Below are positions 643-51,393 of a stretch of 53,045 nt of DNA, in pieces. Under the pieces are notes generated by a model. That model did no database searches, had not been told where the DNA came from, and was given only the letters and a program-made list of their open reading frames with translations. Numbering within the stretch: the stretch's first letter is position 1; the number at the start of each line of letters is the position of its first letter. Origin of the DNA: Escherichia phage AV127; the sequence record OR352957. One strand, 5' to 3'. The position numbers were made by a program, and so were the translations under genes.

Positions 643-3151
643 TATTCTCGGTCTGAAATACTTTAAGCCAGAAGGGATTCCCCAAGTCTTCAAAGATATG
701 AAGCGCTGGGCTATCTTTGAGCTAACGTACGAAGACGAGACTCTTGAAGTTCAATCCAAACCGAAGAAACCTGCAAGAGCGCCATCAGGCCGTTCCTTCA
801 GCACAACAGTGCCTGAAGAGTGGATGACTTTCGACGACGCCCTGACACGTTGTATTCGCAATCGTGAAATGAAGATTAAAGCTGTACAGGGGAATATCAC
901 CTTTGTGCCGGCTTTGGTTGTTCCTCGCCAGTGGTACTTTGTCGACCTGGACAACCATGAAGATAACCCAGACATTGAAGCTACCCACAAAGCGATAATT
1001 GAAGGGACTCGTGGTGCTTATGCCGAGACGTCAATCTCTGGCAAAGGGCAACACATTGCAATCCCTTTACCCTGGACTGCGGCAACATCTAAAGAGAAAG
1101 ACGAACAGCTGGACATCAAAATCCAGAAGGCTGAGATGTTCCTGGTAATGACGGGTAACGTGTTGAGTGAGTTCAATGCTAATCCTGTTTCAGCCCGTGA
1201 ATGGCATGCAGCAATTGAGAAGTTCTTTCTTGAATCAAGCGCACCTGACATTGATGTTGAGTTTGAGCAAGACGAAGACCGTGGCGAAGAGTATGACAAA
1301 GAGCTGTACGAACAGCTAGCCGACAATACTCGCTGGGCTTTAGAACACTATCTGAACGAGCACGCACCCGACGGTGTTGGTGTGAGTAATGACGGTTCTG
1401 AACGTTTAAGCCGTATCTTAAAAGACTTGCTTCGTGTAACCCGTAACTATGAAGTTACACAACGCATCTTCATGGCCAGCAAAGCTGCAGCATACGAAGG
1501 TCGTCGTGCAAGCCGACATAACTTGTCTGTTGACAAGTACCATCAGTGGTTCAGTCGTGTTGGTAAGACTGTGCTGAAAGAGATGCAACGTGATGGCTTA
1601 TTCGTCAAGACCAAGTTTGCTCTTGACATCAACAAAGAGTTAACCAAGAATTCTGGTGTGTCACTGGCTGAGAACGTTGAGTTCAAAGTCAATGACGATA
1701 TTCTGCCATCTGACGTATTTGTCAGGACGGCCCCGTCCGGGTTTAAACGGCTTATTGCTGAGATACAGGATAACATATCTCCGGCTAACAGGGTTAACGA
1801 CTATGCAATTGGCACAGCTCTTAACATCCTGAGCAACTGCGCTGGTCGCAAGTATGTTTGTCCAGTAGGCGGTCATGCTAACTTCCTGGTAACCAACATA
1901 ATTCTTGTGGGTGGTTCATCAATCGGTAAATCGTTGTATACCGAAATGTTCCCACAAATCCAGGCAAGTTTACCTGATACATCACCTATCAGCCTTAATC
2001 GTATTCCAAGGGAGCAGACTTTTGCAACCAGGACGTTTGCTGAACTGATGTCAAACCCGTCATACCATTCAGTCCAGTTGTTCTATCCTGAGTTTGGTCT
2101 GGCTTTAGGTTCAGGCTTACGCATGAATCCTAACAACCCGGACAACTTTCAGAAAGCTCTGATGGACGCTTCAACCAAGCGTAAGGTTGGTGGTATACTG
2201 ACAGGTATCAAACGTGCTAATGCTGACAATGATGTTAAGACAGTAAGCGAACCGTGCTACTCTATCCTGGGCGACTCAACTCAAGAGCTTATTCTTGACA
2301 ACACCCGCAAACAAGACTTCTCAAGTGGCTTTTTGCCCCGCTTCCTGTTCATCCCGAACTATGAGCGAGCGGAGTTTGCCAAACCTGAGAAAGTAGGACG
2401 TCGCCAGCAGATTCGCCGTACATCCTTTTCAAAGGAGCTGATTGAGAAGCTGGAAGCAATCGCTTATGTGAATGCTATCCCGCCTAACGGTAAATTAAGG
2501 CACGACCCGATTCCTATTTACGACGAATCGGATGATGATGACTTCCTGTACGAATACCAGTGCAACATTAATGACATGCGCCAGTATTACAGGGACAACG
2601 AAGTAGCATCCGCCTTTGTGGGCCGAATGGGTGAGTATGTATTCAACATAGCAGCACTGATTGGCTTACTCGACAACTGGGATGCTCCTGTAATGACCAG
2701 GGACAACATCGAATGGGCTTACAAATACGTTCTTCGTTGTATAACCGCCTGGGTCAATAACACAAGCAGGATAGTAGCACCACCAACTACCAACGCCGAA
2801 GTAGTTGATGGCTTCCTCAAAGTCTACAGGGACATTTTGGCCCTTTACACCAAAAGAGGATGGTCTGGCATAGTCAAGCATTATCCTGAGGGTGTTGTGA
2901 GAAGTATCCGAGAAGAACACCTCCAGATGAATGGTTTAAGCATATATGCTATTCGTCAGTCTTTGAGCTGGTTTAAATCAAATTACGGTTTTAATATCAC
3001 AGCTAATAATAAAGTCATTGACGGAATGCTACAGGACATGATTGACCAGGACTATTTAGCGGTTCAAGTATATAAGCCCACAAGAGGCCGAACTGCTAAC
3101 ATTTACTGCCTGACAGAGCGAGGATATGACACTGCTAAGAAACTAAAATAA
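617..3151 (+). CDS. Primase-polymerase (AEP-type) fused to SF3/D5-like helicase
   Basis: 844 aa; FVDLDN acidic motif in N-terminal half; Walker A GGSSIGKS mid-protein; start uncertain (overlaps previous ORF). Confidence 0.6.
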   Translation: MTMTSQPSDILGLKYFKPEGIPQVFKDMKRWAIFELTYEDETLEVQSKPKKPARAPSGRSFSTTVPEEWMTFDDALTRCIRNREMKIKAVQGNITFVPALVVPRQWYFVDLDNHEDNPDIEATHKAIIEGTRGAYAETSISGKGQHIAIPLPWTAATSKEKDEQLDIKIQKAEMFLVMTGNVLSEFNANPVSAREWHAAIEKFFLESSAPDIDVEFEQDEDRGEEYDKELYEQLADNTRWALEHYLNEHAPDGVGVSNDGSERLSRILKDLLRVTRNYEVTQRIFMASKAAAYEGRRASRHNLSVDKYHQWFSRVGKTVLKEMQRDGLFVKTKFALDINKELTKNSGVSLAENVEFKVNDDILPSDVFVRTAPSGFKRLIAEIQDNISPANRVNDYAIGTALNILSNCAGRKYVCPVGGHANFLVTNIILVGGSSIGKSLYTEMFPQIQASLPDTSPISLNRIPREQTFATRTFAELMSNPSYHSVQLFYPEFGLALGSGLRMNPNNPDNFQKALMDASTKRKVGGILTGIKRANADNDVKTVSEPCYSILGDSTQELILDNTRKQDFSSGFLPRFLFIPNYERAEFAKPEKVGRRQQIRRTSFSKELIEKLEAIAYVNAIPPNGKLRHDPIPIYDESDDDDFLYEYQCNINDMRQYYRDNEVASAFVGRMGEYVFNIAALIGLLDNWDAPVMTRDNIEWAYKYVLRCITAWVNNTSRIVAPPTTNAEVVDGFLKVYRDILALYTKRGWSGIVKHYPEGVVRSIREEHLQMNGLSIYAIRQSLSWFKSNYGFNITANNKVIDGMLQDMIDQDYLAVQVYKPTRGRTANIYCLTERGYDTAKKLK

Positions 3152-3162
3152 GTAAGTAAATC

Positions 3163-3204
3163 AAGGGCTTGGGTAATTGTAAAAATCCTAAGCCCTTATT
3201 TTTT
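3163..3204 (+). terminator. Rho-independent terminator after primase-helicase gene
   Basis: AAGGGCTT...AAGCCCTT stem followed by ATTTTTT. Confidence 0.6.
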
Positions 3205-3370
3205 AAGCTTATTTTACAAACTGATTAATATTTAAACTATAATTAAATATATGGGCGATAAGAGTATGATTTTATTACTCTTTTACTAGTCATAATATAT
3301 GGCCTCGATAAATAAAAATAAAGGGGGTAATAAGGGGATACAAGTACCGGATAAAAGGGGGTATATATTT

Positions 3371-16507: not shown

Positions 16508-16995
16508 TGATTCGCATACGCCTTTACCGTCGTGACAAACAAAAGTTCGAGTTCACCTACCGTGCCTTTAAGTCATTCGAGGGTCAAGGCGTATCAGTAG
16601 GTGTTCACCCAGAACATAACAGACGTGTAAACCCCAGGGACCGTATAACAAACGCCGAGCTAGCAATGGTGCATGAGTACGGTCTTAACGGTCTGCCAGA
16701 ACGAAGCTTTCTTCGTAGTGCTGTTGGTGGCAGGGGTAAAGGCCGACAGGCAATAAACAAAGCTTTCCGCGATAATGTGCCTGCTGTTCTCAGAGGAAGC
16801 ATGACTGCGCATGAGCTCAACGACAAAATAGGTCGTATGCTTGTTGACGCTGTTCACGACAGAATGGACAGTGACGTACCACCTCCTAACACCGAGCTGA
16901 CAGAAGAACGCAAACGCGGGCCAGGTACACTTAGAGAATCTATGCAGTTATATGATTCGATAGGGTACAAGGTCGGCAGAAACTGGAGGCTATAA
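16507..16995 (+). CDS. Putative head closure/neck protein
   Basis: ATG 16507 overlaps upstream stop (TAATG); ORF track 16438 start judged upstream extension. Confidence 0.45.
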   Translation: MIRIRLYRRDKQKFEFTYRAFKSFEGQGVSVGVHPEHNRRVNPRDRITNAELAMVHEYGLNGLPERSFLRSAVGGRGKGRQAINKAFRDNVPAVLRGSMTAHELNDKIGRMLVDAVHDRMDSDVPPPNTELTEERKRGPGTLRESMQLYDSIGYKVGRNWRL

Positions 16996-18446: not shown

Positions 18447-21403
18447 TGCACACGATGTTGCTTAAAGACGGATCAGACCATCGAGCTAATGTCGAAAGCC
18501 TTATCGAAGGTCACCACCATTTTCTTGAGCGCAATACTGGTAGAACTGACGACGCTACACGTCAGCACTATATCTTCAACCCAGAAGGAGTAGTGTCGAA
18601 CAACCGCCATTTTATTGCGCACACTATGATGGAGTACCAGCCTAACGGTGATGCTCCGTCTGAAAGTCAGTCGCTGCTAATACTCGGCGAAATTCACGCG
18701 TACCTTGCTACTAAGGAACAGCGGTACCTTGATAAAGCAATTGAGTACTTCAATGCTTACGTCAAGTACTATTACGAGGGGGACCCAATCCCTGATACTC
18801 CTCGTCGCTGGATCGCTAACTGGCTTTGTAATGGCAAAGAGCCTGTGCTAGCCAGCTTCCCAATCAACCCTGATTCACCAACACAAGGCGGCTATAAAAA
18901 TGTGCCAGTTAAATTTGTTAACGGCAAAGCACAAATCCCTCATGGTTCTCCTTTCTGGGGCGAGTACCTGGATGTTGCTACTTGGGCCCACAGGGGACAC
19001 ATGGCTTGGCCTGCTATTAATGGTGGTGTCCGTGTTATTAAAAATAAAGTTGACTGGGACGATATTTACAACAATTATCGCATCACTACCATGCCAGCTG
19101 ACCCGTGGAATCAGTTAGCCTGGATTGACTGGCCGAGGTATCTGGGCGAACCAAGCTACACTGTGGACTGGTCAGCTGCTGAACCTCCTGTACATCTCAT
19201 CGAGTATATTGTTGCGTGGACCAATAACAAGATTGGTGTTCTACCTGGCAAAAACGATGAGCTATGGGGAGGCGAGATTCTTGAGTCTGGACTGCCTGAC
19301 TCTCGCAGAGGTGAGATTCAACTCCGTGACCACACTGTCAACGGTGTGTATCTGCTTAACTATGCTGTTAAGCTTCCTGTTGAACACGGTGGTTATTTGC
19401 TTAAGCGAAATGAAGTATGGCACAACAGACCGGTAAACGTTCCATTGTACGGCGAGCTTCAACGCGGTAACGCTGCTGATGCTGAGTTGTGGTTCTGTGA
19501 CTGCTGCTATATGCTGTGGCGAATTACTAACGAGCAAAAGTATTACAACGCTTGGCAAGCTGTCCTGTTTACACTGGAGGAGTATATTGACATCGATAAA
19601 CAAGACCAGTTCTTCCGACAAGACACTCACGCGTCGTCTCCGTTTACTGATGGCATCTCTTATGATTGGTCTTATCCTGAACTGGCACAAGCTATATACT
19701 CACGTGATGAAAATGGTTATATAGTTCTACGTCAGAACCAAAAAGCTCAATCATCTCTGGAGCAACAGGCTGTATGGTTTAAGTGTAAGCCAACAGCTAA
19801 GATACGTACAGAGGTTGGTGGTAAAGACGATGCTGGTCAGAATATCAGTGTCAAAGTGGAAATGTACATGAACCGTGAAAAGGTTGATGTTGAGCAAAAC
19901 ATCTATCGTTTTGTTGCGCAGCTACCTGCACTTGGCGCTTCACCTGCTAACTACGATATTCCGTTAAGCGACTTTGTTGCAGGTACTAAGCCGGACGGTT
20001 CTGAGTATATCTTAGCTGATATTCGTTCATCCACTGAGTATGGTAATGCCACTATTGCGGTGTCTTACCGTACTGACATACTTGACGGCAGACGTGGCAA
20101 CACTGTTCGTATGACAATACCGGATAGTTCGTCAGGTGCCATTATAGGCTTTTGGTTACTGGAATCTTCACAGGCACCTTTAAACTCGCTGACGTATACT
20201 TCTACAGGTCCGTTGTACATCAAAGTAACTGACGCACAGGGCTGGAGTTGGGTACGTGATTTACCTGCCGCACCAGGCTGGGTAACTCGGCAGATTCGTA
20301 CATGGGAGTTCAGGCTGGCGTCATACCAGGAAAACACAGGTACACCACCAGCTAACCCACAATTCGGCGAGATTAAGCAGTTCTCGTTTGTACTGCCTGA
20401 CGGCGTTAATACGTCGACAAGTATTAGCTGGTACTGTGTGAATGATGTTCCGCCTCGCTATAACTGGCCAATTGGTTATACGATTAAGTATCGTCTTACT
20501 TTCTCGGCTGATAACCCGTACACAGCTAAGCTTGGTGACTGTACTGTGCTGGACTATGAGAATGATAACCTTGCTTATACGCCAGGTGTTATTCCGTTCT
20601 CCAACATTTATAACCCTGACTCTCAGCAGTTTGACGGTTGGCACGGTCTACCTTACCCTGGGTATCAGTATCCGTTTGTCTTTACGCATGACGATACTGC
20701 AGCAGGTACAATCAGGCTGAACAACATGGTTAACTTTTTGTACGATTCTCAGCAATGGTACTTTAAGAAGTTTGGTCAGCTAGGTCCTGGTGCATCTGCT
20801 TTTATCTGGAACCGCTGGGATAACTTTAAATACGGTGTACCTGATACATTTACCATGTATCACTGGGGCAACGGTAGTGCATGGTCAGGTTACCAGCCTC
20901 GTGCTTACTTCTCCGCAGCACGTGGATGGTATGAGCTAGTAAACCGTGGTAAGCCGGTTCCGAGTAAGCTTATTGCTTATGTGGATAACTGGTCAAAATG
21001 GTTGCTTGACTTCATGGAAAGGTCAGGAGGTGTGTCACCTTCTAACTTCCCGCAAGAAGGTGTTGCTCTGCCAGTCCCTTCAGACTTCACAGGTCACATG
21101 TGTGGACTATGGCTTGCTGGTGCAGCTATGTCAGCCCTTTGTGGGTCAACAGTATCAGGACTTGATAAGCTGATGGATATGCTTGTCAATGAGCTAGAAG
21201 ACCACTATGACATAACTGGTATTCCGGGACATGTGATGGATGGTGGTTGGTCGCCAGCGTTACGCCTTGAAACTGGTACAGGACCTGAGAGCAACGCCAT
21301 GTACTATGGTTTTTACTCTGGCGAAATATTGCGAGGGTTGGGCTTATACCTGCTGTACAAAAACAAAGGGGCTAAAGCAGATATTTATGATTTAGGCCAG
21401 TAA
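18446..21403 (+). CDS. Large (985 aa) W/Y-rich protein, possible virion-associated carbohydrate-active enzyme
   Basis: Very high Trp/Tyr/Gly/Asn content; sits between neck genes and Ig-like proteins. Confidence 0.45.
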   Translation: MHTMLLKDGSDHRANVESLIEGHHHFLERNTGRTDDATRQHYIFNPEGVVSNNRHFIAHTMMEYQPNGDAPSESQSLLILGEIHAYLATKEQRYLDKAIEYFNAYVKYYYEGDPIPDTPRRWIANWLCNGKEPVLASFPINPDSPTQGGYKNVPVKFVNGKAQIPHGSPFWGEYLDVATWAHRGHMAWPAINGGVRVIKNKVDWDDIYNNYRITTMPADPWNQLAWIDWPRYLGEPSYTVDWSAAEPPVHLIEYIVAWTNNKIGVLPGKNDELWGGEILESGLPDSRRGEIQLRDHTVNGVYLLNYAVKLPVEHGGYLLKRNEVWHNRPVNVPLYGELQRGNAADAELWFCDCCYMLWRITNEQKYYNAWQAVLFTLEEYIDIDKQDQFFRQDTHASSPFTDGISYDWSYPELAQAIYSRDENGYIVLRQNQKAQSSLEQQAVWFKCKPTAKIRTEVGGKDDAGQNISVKVEMYMNREKVDVEQNIYRFVAQLPALGASPANYDIPLSDFVAGTKPDGSEYILADIRSSTEYGNATIAVSYRTDILDGRRGNTVRMTIPDSSSGAIIGFWLLESSQAPLNSLTYTSTGPLYIKVTDAQGWSWVRDLPAAPGWVTRQIRTWEFRLASYQENTGTPPANPQFGEIKQFSFVLPDGVNTSTSISWYCVNDVPPRYNWPIGYTIKYRLTFSADNPYTAKLGDCTVLDYENDNLAYTPGVIPFSNIYNPDSQQFDGWHGLPYPGYQYPFVFTHDDTAAGTIRLNNMVNFLYDSQQWYFKKFGQLGPGASAFIWNRWDNFKYGVPDTFTMYHWGNGSAWSGYQPRAYFSAARGWYELVNRGKPVPSKLIAYVDNWSKWLLDFMERSGGVSPSNFPQEGVALPVPSDFTGHMCGLWLAGAAMSALCGSTVSGLDKLMDMLVNELEDHYDITGIPGHVMDGGWSPALRLETGTGPESNAMYYGFYSGEILRGLGLYLLYKNKGAKADIYDLGQ

Positions 21404-25487: not shown

Positions 25488-25910
25488 ATGATCATCGATT
25501 CTTCTGAATGCGTGTTGAGCCTGAATGGTGTTCAGCTGTCCGACTGGGCAGACGGTGCCGATGTCATTGACGTGCAATGGGTGGACCCAGCTTCCACCTA
25601 TCTTGCAGGTGCAGATGGCAATGGCATTCAGATTATGAACCCGTCCAAAGCNNCTATCAAGGTTAAGCAAAATGGTCCGGATGCCAAATGGCTTAACGAC
25701 CAGTACAACCTGCAGCGTAACAACATTCGTGGATTTGTCCCGTTTGTGCTGCAAGCCAAAGACCTGCTAAACCAGGATTTGGCATGGGGCAAAAAAGGTT
25801 ACTTTACCGATGGTTCCCCGTGGACTCGCGGTAACGGCCATAACCCGACTACCTTCGCTATTGTGTTCCACCAAGGTGGTATGCAGTTGACTGAAGGCTT
25901 TGACCAGTAA
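25488..25910 (+). CDS. Putative tail tube protein (contains 2-nt N gap at 25651-25652)
   Basis: 140 aa after sheath-like gene. Confidence 0.5.
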   Translation: MIIDSSECVLSLNGVQLSDWADGADVIDVQWVDPASTYLAGADGNGIQIMNPSKXXIKVKQNGPDAKWLNDQYNLQRNNIRGFVPFVLQAKDLLNQDLAWGKKGYFTDGSPWTRGNGHNPTTFAIVFHQGGMQLTEGFDQ

Positions 25911-29095: not shown

Positions 29096-29511
29096 TGATA
29101 TTTACCACAACNNNNNNNNNNNNNNNNNNNNNNNNNNNNNNNNNNNNNNNNNNNNNNNNNNNNNNNNNNNNTATTTACGACTTGGAACCTACCTCCGAAG
29201 GTAAGCAATCAATATCAATTTCTACCGCTGGATATACGTATAACATTGAGTTGTACTATAACACGGTAGGTCAGCTCTGGCAGGCTACAGTGACTGACAT
29301 ATCAAGTAATGCTGTACTTTGTTCCAGTTATGCTTTACAATATGGGCGTATTGCTTTTGGTAACTGGGACACGCGTATAGCGTTGCTGGTAAGTGACAAA
29401 TCCTCCAGCCGCATCGGTCCTATGACTACAGATGACATGGGAGGACGTTGCAGTGTCTACATCGTCGACAAAACAGCCTACCCGTCAGTTTGGCCGCGCG
29501 TTAAAGCTTGA
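29095..29511 (+). CDS. Hypothetical tail protein interrupted by 60-nt N gap
   Basis: ORF track; N-run 29112-29171 makes frame and length unreliable. Confidence 0.3.
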   Translation: MIFTTXXXXXXXXXXXXXXXXXXXXXIYDLEPTSEGKQSISISTAGYTYNIELYYNTVGQLWQATVTDISSNAVLCSSYALQYGRIAFGNWDTRIALLVSDKSSSRIGPMTTDDMGGRCSVYIVDKTAYPSVWPRVKA

Positions 29512-40559: not shown

Positions 40560-41542
40560 TTATACGGCCATTTGGAGTTTGATGTTTGGCATTGGTTTGT
40601 ACTTCTCAACCATTGGCGCAACATCGGTAGGAGTGAAGTCAAATACTGACACGTCATAAATCGCGTTAATGTCAGGACGACCTTCAAAGTTAGTGTCCAG
40701 TGTAGTATCAGAATTGCTTACGATACGTTGCAGGAAAATCTTTGCCGCATCGATATGATTCTGATAGATGTGATAGTCACCCAACGTAACAGTCATATCA
40801 CCTACCCCAGTACCCAGCTCAGCAGCAATGGTAATCTGCAGCATTTGATGCAACAGAATATCGTGAGGCAGACCCAGAATAACATCCGCGCTACGCATGT
40901 GGAACATCAGCTCTAATTCATTACGGTTGTTAATGAACAGCTGAAAACCATGGTAACAAGGCGGAAGGGCCATGGCGTCCATCTCTTGTGGGTTCCACGC
41001 CGTAATGTACGCCCTGCGGTCAGTAGGCTTAACCTTCAGCGTTTCAATAACATCTTTAAGCTGGTTAGTAAGAACACCATTCTTATAGAAAGGCTTAATC
41101 CATTGCACGCCGTATACCGGACCTAAGTCACGGTTGTCTGGTGTACCCCAACGTTTGTTTGCATCCTGCAGGTTACCTTCCCACCAGTTGCAGCCAAAGC
41201 CTTTGAGCGTGTCGACGTTTGAAATGCCGTTGATAAAGCAGTAAAGCTCAGCAGCAACAGCTTTGATGTTAACAGGTTTAAACACCGGCACCATCAGTTT
41301 GTTGTCGTTGAAAGCCAGTTTAAACGCTGTACCAAAACAACGGCGGGTNNNNNNNNNNNNNNNNNNNNNNNNNNNNNNNNNNNNNNNNNNNNNNNNNNNN
41401 NNNNNNNNNNNNNNNNNNNNNNNNNNNNNNNNNNNNNNNNNNNNNNACCAACACCTGTACGGTCTACAACATCCTCACCTTTACGCAGGATAAAAGAAAT
41501 GATGTCGCTGTAAAGAGAATCGACAGTGCTGTATGTTTTCAT
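40560..41542 (-). CDS. Thymidylate-synthase-fold pyrimidine C5-modifying enzyme, predicted dCMP-directed; interrupted by 98-nt N gap
   Basis: DRTGVG, LGPVYGVQW, DRRAYITAWNPQEMDAMALPPCYHGFQ; Asp in GLPHDILL where ThyA has Asn (GLPFNIAS). Confidence 0.65.
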
Positions 41543-42546: not shown

Positions 42547-42575
42547 ATTATACCACATCACTCTCTAGTGGTAAA
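42547..42575 (-). promoter_or_regulatory. Early promoter TTTACC-N17-TATAAT with ACCAC...GTGGT inverted repeat overlapping spacer and -10
   Basis: Minus strand reads TTTACCACTAGAGAGTGATGTGGTATAAT. Confidence 0.5.
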
Positions 42576-42601: not shown

Positions 42602-42630
42602 AAAAAGGACCAGCGTTAACTGGTCCTTTT
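42602..42630 (-). terminator. Bidirectional rho-independent terminator
   Basis: A5-AGGACCA-GCGTTAAC-TGGTCCT-T4. Confidence 0.65.
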
Positions 42631-42639
42631 GGCAGGGTG

Positions 42640-43197
42640 GTGTAAGGAGATACAAGGAATCGCAGTTATGCAACCAGGCAGCGCATATGAGATTGGCTAA
42701 AGGACTGACCGACTTAATCCCCACGACAAGTCAGAAAGGAGGTACCATCAAGTAGCCAATCACATATGCGTTACTTGCTGTGTGCTCTCACCGCGGAAAG
42801 TATAGAGCGTTGCACTTATCATACCGATGGAGTGGCAAAAGCACACAGCAAGTACAACCTTAGTTGTGGTGTCTTAGCACCTGAGTTACTGTGGATAACC
42901 TGCACCCGACGGGTGTCAAAAAGATACGCCAAAACACCACAACTAAAATTGTGACCGCCGTCTACACCAGGCGCCTGGGGTCAAGGTAGCGAGCCAATAC
43001 CCTTTTCAGCGTTGGAGGAATCGAACCTCACACATCACGGCTTTTACCAAATCTCGGTCAGCGAGCAGAATTGAACTGCATTCACTGGACACCCTCACTG
43101 TTTCAACACACCAGGCTTAATTGATTGTTGATAAGAAGAGAGATGTAAGGATGTCCATTGAATGCACCTCCGTAGAGGTGCGTTCAGATCAGCGCTA
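42640..43197 (-). other. Structured noncoding region with three successive long inverted repeats
   Basis: IRs 42681-42698/42754-42770 (17 bp, 1 mismatch), 42772-42786/42840-42854 (15 bp), 42860-42872/42934-42946 (13 bp); palindrome CCAGGCGCCTGG 42967-42978. Confidence 0.5.
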
Positions 43198-43665
43198 TTA
43201 TTCAGCAACTTCTACGTTGTCGCCTTCAATTGCGCCAGCCAGTTTAGCGGCTTCAGCTTTAGCAGCTTCTGCTTTCTGGCGAGCTTTTTCAGCTTTCTCT
43301 TCAGCTTTGCGAATCTGCTCAGCAGCTTTCGCTTCAGCTTTTTCAGCTTTGATGCGTGCACGCTCTTCAGCTTTACGCTGTTTTTCAGCGGCTTTAGCAG
43401 CATCGCGTTCTGCTTTAGCGGTATCAACGCGCTTAGCCAGAACCTTACCAGTGGCTTTACGCCAGTAGGTCAGCTGAGAAGAAACAGTACCACGGGACAT
43501 TTCGGTAGTAGCAACAACTTCGTCCATAACGTCAGAGCTGGACTTGCCTTCTTCGTGGGCTTTGTCAGCCAGGTCCCATACATAACGTGCGCCAGTACCA
43601 GATGCCGGATACAGTACGCCGTTAACTTCTTCTTTACCAGTTACAAAAGTCAGTTTCTCGCTCAT
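43198..43665 (-). CDS. Putative DNA-binding protein with K/A/E-rich histone-H1-like C-terminal tail
   Basis: Internal ATG with GAGGAAAA SD; C-terminal KAAEKQRKAEERARIKAEKAEAKAAEQ repeats. Confidence 0.45.
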   Translation of the reverse strand: MSEKLTFVTGKEEVNGVLYPASGTGARYVWDLADKAHEEGKSSSDVMDEVVATTEMSRGTVSSQLTYWRKATGKVLAKRVDTAKAERDAAKAAEKQRKAEERARIKAEKAEAKAAEQIRKAEEKAEKARQKAEAAKAEAAKLAGAIEGDNVEVAE

Positions 43666-43771
43666 AATTTTTTCCTCGTCTACAGGGCTTAATGTTTGTT
43701 CGTTACGTGAGTTAATATACGTCATTTAAAAGAGAGTGTAAACACCTTTTTTAAACTTTTTTCATTAGTGT

Positions 43772-51094: not shown

Positions 51095-51393
51095 TTACAT
51101 TTACCTTTACATTTGTGTGGAGGTGTATATGTTTTCTTCGGTACGCCGAACATGGCGGCATAGGTACCGACTTCTTTCTTTGTTGGCTTATCCACAATCT
51201 CGTCGGCCACGATAAAGTCTGGTCTGAGGGCACGACCTGTACAGCCAAAGACTTCAGCCGCTCTTTTCTCAACAGGAGTAAAGTCAATAACCAGCTCTTT
51301 GCCTATCAGACTTTCTTTGAACTTGTCAAATAGCCATTTGTCACGCGGACCAAGATTGCCCATAAACATAACATGCATCTGCTTATTGCCCAT
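51091..51393 (-). CDS. Hypothetical protein (100 aa)
   Basis: ORF track. Confidence 0.4.
   Translation of the reverse strand: MGNKQMHVMFMGNLGPRDKWLFDKFKESLIGKELVIDFTPVEKRAAEVFGCTGRALRPDFIVADEIVDKPTKKEVGTYAAMFGVPKKTYTPPHKCKGKCK

Follow-up and report, generated by a model that had tools for sequence, protein, structure and literature searches.

A conserved minus-strand RNA cassette in a tRNA-gene slot of Rosemountvirus phages and its putative tRNA-elbow mimic

What does a phage keep in 567 nucleotides (nt) that carry no gene? The question is raised by positions 42631–43197 of Escherichia phage AV127 (sequence record OR352957), whose whole 53,045-nt stretch was analyzed and is called the window here. 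The region and its flanks are 95–98% identical to Rosemountvirus genomes (e.g., nenneke, zoltan, yarpen, and BP63), and the window is itself a Rosemountvirus, a BP63-like myovirus of Salmonella and Escherichia coli. Rosemountvirus and Loughboroughvirus are candidate biocontrol agents against these hosts; papers on their genomes report no tRNA genes and pass over the region (PMC7432712, PMC9343928). In the GenBank records of relatives, the gap is either empty or filled with two to five short hypothetical open reading frames (ORFs). A sequence-only reading of this DNA had pointed out three long inverted repeats and a palindrome in the gap, and had offered a structured non-coding RNA or 3' untranslated region, a cluster of operators, or a secondary replication origin as explanations. 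We found a conserved cassette of structured RNA that Rosemountvirus and Loughboroughvirus maintain in what was once a tRNA slot. The account that we consider reasonably probable is that of a set of small structured RNAs that is transcribed early, probably processed by RNases, and derived from a tRNA cluster, with a mimic of the tRNA elbow at its core.

Conserved RNA structure on the minus strand

The three repeats and the palindrome were all present essentially where the sequence-only reading had placed them: a perfect 15-nt inverted repeat (42772–42786/42840–42854, spacer of 53 nt), a 25-nt repeat that is 84% matched as DNA and has a 13-nt perfect core (42854–42878/42928–42952, spacer of 49 nt), another 25-nt repeat at 84% (42675–42699/42753–42777, spacer of 53 nt), and the palindrome CCAGGCGCCTGG at 42967–42978. 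Two further inverted repeats lie nearer the upstream gene (43077–43098/43145–43166, 22 nt, 86%; and 43159–43170/43175–43186); that reading had missed these two hairpins, as well as the T-arms, the D-loop-like sequence, and the tRNAs of a relative described below. Its judgment that such repeats exceed chance was borne out. The region contains two perfect inverted repeats of at least 13 nt with a loop of 30–80 nt, whereas none of 2,000 dinucleotide shuffles contained even one, and the fold z-score was −9.0 for the minus strand and −8.3 for the plus strand. Elsewhere in the window, split inverted repeats of similar size and spacing were represented by one weaker 17-nt pair (16516–16594).

Read on the minus strand, the five inverted repeats correspond to hairpins P1–P5 (Table 1), which were compared with their counterparts in Loughboroughvirus (S144, ZCSE2, and SE4), in phages fHy-Eco03 and SE1_KM, and in Erwinia phage SOI901. 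The P1 stem (GCACCUC/GAGGUGC) has the counterpart GCCCCUC/GAGGGGC in SOI901, and the P2 stem is kept in SE4, fHy-Eco03, SE1_KM, and SOI901 through many two-sided changes, with the mismatch at a constant position. The apical junction of P3 carries two small hairpins, a (CACCC-GUC-GGGUG) and b (GUUAU-CCACA-GUAAC). P3 of fHy-Eco03 and SE1_KM has an outer stem of different sequence that still measures approximately 22 base pairs (bp), and its hairpin a covaries from CACCC/GGGUG to CAUCC/GGAUG; a P4 counterpart, built on another stem (GUUGGCUCU/AGAGUCAAC), is also present in these two phages. P5 is absent from the Loughboroughvirus copies; within Rosemountvirus, its apical part occurs as two haplotypes (window, nenneke, and yarpen versus BP63, SPLA11, and Sz) on a constant stem. 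Loop–loop pairing of the P2-loop motif with CAACGC after the T2 hairpin (see below) is compatible with the Rosemountvirus and Loughboroughvirus sequences and absent in fHy-Eco03. A search of IMG/VR with the 14-nt P2-loop motif returned matches at chance level.

Folding and covariation across related phages, which had been proposed as a check, spoke for a conserved RNA. In an alignment of 11 Rosemountvirus and Loughboroughvirus copies over the whole stretch, RNAalifold retained P1, P2, the T1 hairpin, P3, P4, and the terminator, and stems were preserved through compensatory changes across four phage lineages (including those of fHy-Eco03, SE1_KM, and SOI901). The local helices on the minus strand contained 191 G·U cells (35 pairs) versus four A·C cells (three pairs), A·C being the form that a G·U of the opposite strand would take. 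Prediction on the sense strand by itself favors an excess of G·U; the hairpin energies agree nevertheless, with sense versus antisense values of −36.6 versus −28.6 kcal/mol for P2, −45.6 versus −31.7 for P3, and −39.1 versus −32.9 for P4. Nearly all one-sided changes in stems were from U-A to U·G or from G·U to A-U, and the identity between the window and S144 was 90% in paired columns and 69% in unpaired columns. Because G·U pairs far outnumber A·C pairs, folding energies are better on the sense strand, and changes are compensatory, we attribute the structure to the minus-strand RNA; these comparisons show it to be specific to that RNA and not to the DNA.

The earlier judgment that the gap lacks a convincing ORF also stood: no ORF of at least 25 amino acids was kept between the Rosemountvirus and Loughboroughvirus copies, all of them being broken by frameshifting indels or stops, and by this comparison the region is shown to be non-coding. 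For the flanking 132-amino-acid protein, identity falls to 76% in Loughboroughvirus and to 41% in the fHy-Eco03 group and in SOI901; for the central 45 nt of the RNA, it amounts to 95–100% in Loughboroughvirus and to 91% in the fHy-Eco03 group.

The tRNA-like core and the tRNA-gene slot

The core of the cassette, at 42952–43083, has the elbow-forming parts of a tRNA and lacks an acceptor stem and an anticodon arm. The loops of two T-arm-like hairpins, UUCAAUU in T1 and UUCGAUU in T2, fit the pattern UUCRA, and the T2 stem varies among relatives (CCUGGG/CCCAGG in S144 and GCCUG/CAGGC in fHy-Eco03). The dinucleotide U-G precedes a D-like helix where tRNAs have U8-N9, the stretch after UGACCG fits the D-loop consensus A14 R15 .. 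G18 G19 U20 A21, with AGAUUUGGUAA as the D-like loop sequence, and CGGUCA (42952–42957) closes the helix with UGACCG. We infer that this T-arm/D-loop element folds like a tRNA elbow. ARAGORN with default settings identified no tRNA or transfer-messenger RNA (tmRNA) gene in the window and no tRNA in six relatives; in Rfam 15, the whole window had no match at the gathering score, and the region returned nothing relevant at E-values up to 10, RF00005 included. A partner strand for the would-be acceptor UCGCUGA was absent in four of five lineages, S144 having one wobble candidate (UCAGUGA, sense position 103). A 5-bp extension of T1 (AGUGA/UCGCU) is present in the window and was set aside, as inspection showed it not to be conserved across the family described below.

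A search by tblastn with the flanking 132-amino-acid protein led to Erwinia phage SOI901 (L033), whose syntenic gap contains a tRNA-Pro(UGG) gene at 3063–3139 and a tRNA-Gln(UUG) gene at 3148–3223, on which its record and ARAGORN agree. These genes come after homologs of P1 and P2, and downstream of them is a long hairpin with the P2-loop motif of the window, AGCCUGGUGCGUUGG, in its loop; counterparts of the terminator and promoter close the slot, as in the window. Synteny thus shows that the cassette occupies the tRNA-gene slot of a distant relative. In fHy-Eco03 and SE1_KM, P3 lies between P2 and T1, and because the module order differs in this group, the cassette can be regarded as modular. 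Rhizobium phage RHph_N38 (L171) also has tRNA-Pro(UGG) and tRNA-Gln(UUG) at the locus; there, an element of the family follows tRNA-Gln, and in SOI901 the two tRNAs occupy the position of the relatives' element. The tRNA-Gln sequences of the two phages are clearly different by inspection, and their common tRNA pair may be a coincidence.

Table 1. Features of the gap and its borders in the window, in the order of minus-strand transcription.
Feature	Position in window	Strand	Basis or remark
Sigma-70-like promoter TTTACA-17-TATATT, upstream of the K/A/E-rich gene	43714–43742	−	Consensus scan; predicted
K/A/E-rich protein gene	43198–43665	−	ORF list; upstream of the gap, read as co-transcribed
P1, short GC-rich hairpin right after the stop codon, without a U-tract	43159–43186	−	Inverted-repeat scan and alignment
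P2, 22-bp stem with one mismatch; conserved apical loop motif AGCCUGGUGYGUUG	43077–43166	−	
Match to family covariance model R1 (19 members, built without the window)	43010–43083	−	48.3 bits, E = 5e-15
T1, T-arm-like hairpin GCAG-UUCAAUU-CUGC	43065–43079	−	Stem covaries family-wide
UCGC linker, U-G, helix strand ACCG, and D-loop-like AGAUUUGGUAAAAG	43041–43064	−	100% identical in all Rosemountvirus and Loughboroughvirus copies
T2, T-arm-like hairpin GAGG-UUCGAUU-CCUC	43015–43029	−	Stem covariation
Degenerate second unit: GGGUAUUGGCUCGCUACC, UUGACC, palindrome CCAGGCGCCUGG (42967–42978), and closing strand CGGUCA	42952–43002	−	
P3, 25-bp stem with apical three-way junction	42854–42951	−	Inverted-repeat scan and alignment
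P4, 20–21-bp stem; apical domain with conserved GAUAAGUGYAACGCU	42772–42854	−	
P5, interrupted 17–18-bp stem with variable apical part	42677–42770	−	Rosemountvirus only
Intrinsic terminator, 12-bp stem and U-tract	42602–42630	−	Kept in all lineages including SOI901
Promoter of the next gene, TTTACC-17-TATAAT with TG; end of the cassette	42547–42575	−	Near-invariant in all lineages

A phage family of T-arm, UCGC, and D-loop elements

Elements with the arrangement of the core were collected as a family, defined by a 4–5-bp stem with a UUCRANU loop, followed by UCGC, UGAYCG, and AG N3-4 GGU R A, and by a downstream (C)GRUCA strand that pairs with UGAYCG; in the window, these parts lie at 43065–43041 and 42952–42957. 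A scan of IMG/VR with the 17-mer GCTCGCTGACCGAGATT identified 17 loci, 15 of which had an identical architecture in contigs that were otherwise unrelated, and a degenerate-pattern scan identified 60 loci, of which approximately 45 had the architecture, with approximately 45 distinct copies in unrelated phage contigs. The carriers include contigs of 157–412 kb (jumbo phages), the N4-like phage RHph_N38, and a Myoviridae genome from Manatee Spring. Thus, of the nucleotide and covariance-model searches that the sequence-only reading had proposed, the one against Rfam found no match, and the one in IMG/VR uncovered this family.

The MAFFT alignment of all members (A4) brought the 4-bp and 5-bp T1 stems out of register, and pair counts were therefore limited to the 19 members with 5-bp stems (alignment A5, window excluded). 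In these members, pairing in the T1 and T2 stems stood at 93%, and 50 cells had two-sided changes; none of 500 shuffles attained this, and slid controls collapsed. In the closing helix UGAYCG/GRUCA, all eight members with UGAUCG have GAUC, and 37 of the 39 members with UGACCG have GGUC, the other two forming a G·U wobble. The covariance model R1 recognized the window (Table 1); on its scale, the lowest recognized members score 28.7–31 bits, matches to a T-arm only reach at most 16 bits, and a second tier of whole-model matches extends to 22 bits. Second-tier matches of 18–22 bits (L177 1122–1156, L196 7132–7193, L194 1445–1507, and L180 1178–1242) occur in contigs that already have one copy and may be divergent paralogs.

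Among 47 family loci, 20 contain tRNA genes, and 12 of the 47 elements begin 3–11 nt after the 3' end of a tRNA. Some jumbo-phage copies lack T2 and are minimal, being made up of T1, UCGC, and a hairpin that bears the D-loop sequence (T1-UCGC-UGAUCG-AGGUUAGGUAAGCGCAUG-CGAUCA). A seven-codon mini-ORF over T1 (MQFNSAR) was rejected, being limited to the subgroup with 4-bp stems. Many GC-rich members have an extra motif 3' of the closing strand, GGUCUGRCAG-CCGG-GAAAGA-CCGG-CA (L038, L178, L182–L184, L189, L190, L207, L214, L216, L172, and L181), which the window lacks. No recurrent partner gene was seen beside the element in the ORF list of the other phage contigs, and a search of IMG/VR with the flanking 132-amino-acid protein returned only phages already known.

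In bacterial genomes, the 17-mer had at least 120 matches, which is close to chance (roughly 70 expected in 596 Gb by our own arithmetic), and a T-arm context was found in one of the first 120, a Rosemountvirus contig binned into a metagenome-assembled genome (MAG). Full-length members had only weak matches in Rfam (mascRNA-menRNA, 18 bits; tmRNA T-arm, 13 bits). A text search of the literature found no description of a T-arm/UCGC/D-loop RNA, and a sequence-word search returned nothing relevant. The family is apparently widespread in phages, absent from Rfam, and undescribed.

Possible function, alternative explanations, and genomic setting

In the account that we favor, the cassette would be transcribed in the minus-strand sense along with the early gene that precedes it, from the promoter before that gene to the terminator. 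The transcript of the slot would contain the tRNA-like element and the four long hairpins P2–P5 with their conserved apical domains. The long stems may serve as RNase III-type substrates, at which the precursor would be cut into RNAs of approximately 60–130 nt, or as stability modules; RNase III substrates have approximately 20 bp or more of near-perfect double-stranded RNA, and the stems measure 22 bp in P2, 25 bp in P3, 20–21 bp in P4, and 17–18 bp, with interruptions, in P5. The tRNA-like element would mimic a tRNA toward a host factor that reads the elbow, for which a tRNA processing or modification enzyme, or a factor of tRNA-directed decay or defence, is a candidate. The function of the cassette would be accessory rather than essential. 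A natural deletion bears on this last point: phage rivia, a wastewater isolate, lacks sense positions 156–300 (window 42901–43045, 145 nt), with a GGT microhomology at the junction. This removes T2 and the second unit with its palindrome, together with hairpin a and the 5' arm of P3. The segment is thus shown not to be essential on the laboratory host of rivia, suggesting that the deleted part is accessory rather than essential.

Several observations weigh against this account. The loss of T2, the second unit, and half of P3 in rivia also fits little or no function of these parts, and we infer the promoter, the RNase III cleavage, and the elbow fold alike from sequence features. The homology between the core of the window and the SOI901 tRNAs is weak, as 17 of 500 shuffles score as well when the whole core is compared, and the second unit showed no homology to the SOI901 tRNA-Gln. 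The position of the Levitt pair (G15 with the base before T1) is not conserved as G-C by inspection of alignment A5. Within the close Rosemountvirus and Loughboroughvirus set, only seven of 142 pairs change on both sides, and most are invariant. Finally, the apparent invariance of the 12-mer UCGCUGAYCGAG is partly imposed by the search, because the collection patterns fix it.

Some of the same observations could be explained if the gap held the decaying remains of a tRNA cluster, in which the T-arms would be pseudogene fragments and the hairpins would merely shield the 3' end of the upstream mRNA from exonucleases, with no RNA function of their own. The intact tRNAs in the SOI901 slot, the absence of an ARAGORN tRNA in the window, the viability of rivia after the loss of 145 nt, and the lineage-specific and variable P5 are all consistent with such a relic. 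Nevertheless, we consider it unlikely, since the core 45-mer is far more conserved than the flanking 132-amino-acid protein, compensation preserves the stems across four lineages, and the arrangement recurs in approximately 45 unrelated phage contigs with covarying stems, which neutral relics would not do. An RNA with a function of its own might instead be a Y RNA of the YrlA type, acting via the host Ro60/Rsr-PNPase machinery or its elbow-binding effector. YrlA is the one described class of bacterial RNA with the T-arm 5' of the D-arm, U-R before the D stem, and T and D loops like those of tRNA (Chen et al. 2014, PMC4201824; Wang et al. 2018, bioRxiv 10.1101/312249). YrlA-like RNAs have been reported in 22 phages, and Salmonella has rsr-yrlBA. 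The window and all family members have the same permuted order, and they share with YrlA the U-R dinucleotide, a T-loop of the UUCGA type, and a D-loop with two elbow guanines; YrlA is also thought to be tRNA-derived, with some copies adjoining tRNA genes and some encoded by phages. However, the definition of YrlA (PMC4201824) includes an acceptor-like hairpin that separates T from D, the motif GNCGAAN0-1G close to the 5' end, and a same-strand Ro60/Rsr gene no more than approximately 4 kb away, whereas the phage element has an invariant 4-nt UCGC in place of that hairpin, the motif is absent from the region, and no stem encloses the 5' and 3' ends. In addition, a second T-arm and variable hairpins lie within the 'D' helix of the phage element, and its T- and D-stem sequences are unlike the strongly conserved ones of YrlA. 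The four nearest flanking proteins had no TROVE/Ro60 match in Pfam, and in six related records no neighbor within approximately 3 kb of the locus was annotated as Ro60, the annotations of the other neighbors being helicase, thymidylate synthase, DNA polymerase, or hypothetical protein. Rsr occurs in only approximately 5% of bacteria (PMC4201824), whereas the family is found in phages of many hosts, a far broader range. Action through Ro60 is therefore distinctly improbable; the phage element appears to work like the tRNA-like module of YrlA, yet it is not a member of that class. The chances are minimal for an unusual tRNA, a two-piece (permuted) tmRNA, or several small protein genes. With thresholds relaxed to 75–85%, ARAGORN called a permuted tmRNA in three lineages, represented by the window, S144, and fHy-Eco03; the calls draw on T2, and those for the window and S144 also take the P4-loop motif GAUAAGUGCAACGCU for a resume-like sequence. 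Some GenBank records place two to five small ORFs in the gap. However, the default ARAGORN and Rfam searches reported nothing, there is no CCA, UCGCUGA mostly lacks a partner, the predicted tags are wholly different between lineages and run into the P4 stem, and the ORFs are not conserved. The Rfam tmRNA models matched a T-arm only, at 8–13 bits, in family member L185 and reported nothing for the window region. At the sequence level, all three are excluded.

Of the three explanations offered by the sequence-only reading, the structured non-coding RNA or 3' untranslated region gained from the G·U excess, the sense-strand energies, and the compensatory changes, whereas operators and a secondary origin lost ground through the single DnaA box, the absence of iterons, and the rivia deletion. 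A role at the DNA level, be it as replication origin, DnaA-controlled site, or cluster of cruciforms, is suggested by a perfect DnaA box, TTATCCACA, at 42890–42898 in the sequence of P3 hairpin b. The box belongs to a block of 19 nt that differs by a single A/G change among the three lineages having P3, a TTGACA hexamer lies approximately 17 nt upstream of it, and the locus is situated between helicase and polymerase genes. However, the box is explained by the RNA, its letters being those of the 5' strand plus loop of hairpin b, in which the closing pair is either U·G or U-A; the structure as a whole is strand-asymmetric. The only further candidate in the region is a one-mismatch site at 43126–43134, one-mismatch boxes being at chance level across the window; the region has no iterons, and no AT-rich unwinding stretch was noted in it by eye, no scan having been made. 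SOI901 lacks the block with its box, rivia lacks the 5' arm of P3 and 145 nt beside the box, and the GC skew turns at approximately 37 kb, not at the region. In IMG/VR, the 19-nt block is confined to the Rosemountvirus-related clade, and a metagenome scan with GCAGGTTATCCACARTAAC returned unrelated bacterial loci in approximately the number expected by chance and no phage relatives. The origin or operator reading is thus poorly supported, and the chance of a DNA element is slim. Exact DnaA-box 9-mers also occur at 20980–20988 (−) and 51188–51196 (+), giving three in 53 kb versus approximately 0.4 expected by our own arithmetic. The hairpin modules might also be inserted miniature mobile elements (MITE-, Correia-, or ERIC-like), given that they measure 83–100 nt, are bounded by 20–25-nt inverted ends, and vary in order by lineage, and that the P2-loop motif sits in another hairpin in SOI901. 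Against this very slim possibility, every module occurs only once in the 53-kb genome, the sole copies among 5,426 E. coli genomes are in two whole phage genomes filed as plasmids, the P3 motif is confined to the clade in IMG/VR, the modules do not share their ends, and target duplications were not established.

Other known systems resemble parts of the proposed elbow-mimic cassette. The T4 RNAs rnaC and rnaD are phage small stable RNAs with unknown function, co-transcribed with and adjacent to tRNA genes, and rnaC ends in a T-arm. They differ in having no sequence or model similarity (R1 gives T-arm-type matches of only 9–15 bits in the T4 locus, including one of 14.9 bits on the rnaC T-arm), and the T4 T-arm is 3'-terminal with an acceptor-like strand, whereas that of the phage element is 5' and followed by a D-loop. 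GOLLD and ROOL are likewise structured, phage-borne non-coding regions of approximately 600 nt; they typically have a tRNA gene next to them or even within them, and their role is unknown. In contrast to their single multi-junction fold, the cassette here combines independent long hairpins with a tRNA-like core in phages of Proteobacteria, and their Rfam models had no match at the gathering score in the window or at E-values up to 10 in the region. The mascRNA of MALAT1 and the t-elements of plant mitochondria also place a tRNA-like fold 3' of a coding or long RNA, and the GC-rich family member L182 (not the window) had a weak mascRNA-menRNA match (18 bits, E = 0.18); unlike these, the phage element has no acceptor stem for RNase P to measure. 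The RNase III stems of T7 early mRNAs and rRNA operons, in which approximately two turns of double-stranded RNA flank functional RNAs in a precursor, are comparable with P2–P5, except that the T7 sites contain an internal loop and show no conservation in their apical parts.

More tentatively, the core at 42952–43083 may represent an undescribed class of acceptor-less elbow mimics that is widespread in and restricted to phages and engages a conserved elbow-reading host factor, and that in the Rosemountvirus clade is embedded among further small RNAs which RNase III frees from the long stems. If so, phages would carry an elbow mimic alone or within tRNA arrays, for example to blunt tRNA-directed defence or decay. 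The question of tRNA mimicry is topical because several bacterial defences act on tRNAs, and if the elbow reading is true, the family would be a compact and tractable model of phage tRNA mimicry beyond tRNA supply, for which the rivia deletion and the tRNA-bearing SOI901 provide ready-made comparisons.

The minus strand is the coding strand of all genes around the region. In the direction of transcription, a DEAD-box helicase gene, a small ORF, and the K/A/E-rich gene precede the gap; after it come the terminator, a sigma-70 promoter, the gene of the 132-amino-acid protein, a nucleoside triphosphate (NTP)-pyrophosphohydrolase-like gene, thymidylate synthase, and DNA polymerase. The terminator and its minus-strand orientation, both noted in the sequence-only reading, were confirmed. 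The predicted promoter upstream of the K/A/E-rich gene, at a position matching a promoter annotated in the BP63 record, is the presumed start of transcription through the region. The mechanical ORF of the K/A/E-rich gene (43198–43725) encodes 175 amino acids; the matching PHROG profile starts at residue 21 and the coding sequence in BP63 has 155 amino acids, and M21 (ATG at 43665) is the likely true start. The AlphaFold model of this protein consists of a small beta-hairpin and two helices followed by a helix of approximately 95 residues, and no informative match was found in Pfam, PHROGs, a PDB sequence search, or AlphaFold/Foldseek, where no fold match was significant. Its homolog in fHy-Eco03 has been reported as virion-associated.

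A few observations concern the records themselves. In many large bacterial contigs from metagenomes (L011, L012, L014, and similar ones), the 19-mer GCAGGTTATCCACAGTAAC lies shortly 3' of a terminator, at a locus unrelated to the phage. Two RefSeq E. coli 'plasmids', NZ_CP067310.1 (53,474 bp) and NZ_JBVNBN010000003.1 (52,771 bp), contain the region at 97% and 96% identity and appear to be Rosemountvirus genomes filed as plasmids; their PGAP annotation shows nothing under the region. A 34-kb contig of a 'Bacillota bacterium' MAG (L103, JAEWER010000021.1) has the whole region in near-identical form and is a Rosemountvirus contig binned into a bacterial MAG. In the window, masked runs of N occur at 25652–25653, 29112–29171, and 41349–41446; because the last lies inside the gene, the thymidylate-synthase-like mechanical ORFs are split, and their translations contain X. 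The record PP583539.1, 'Listeria phage 220426122051', is 96% identical to the Rosemountvirus region, and its host label looks doubtful.

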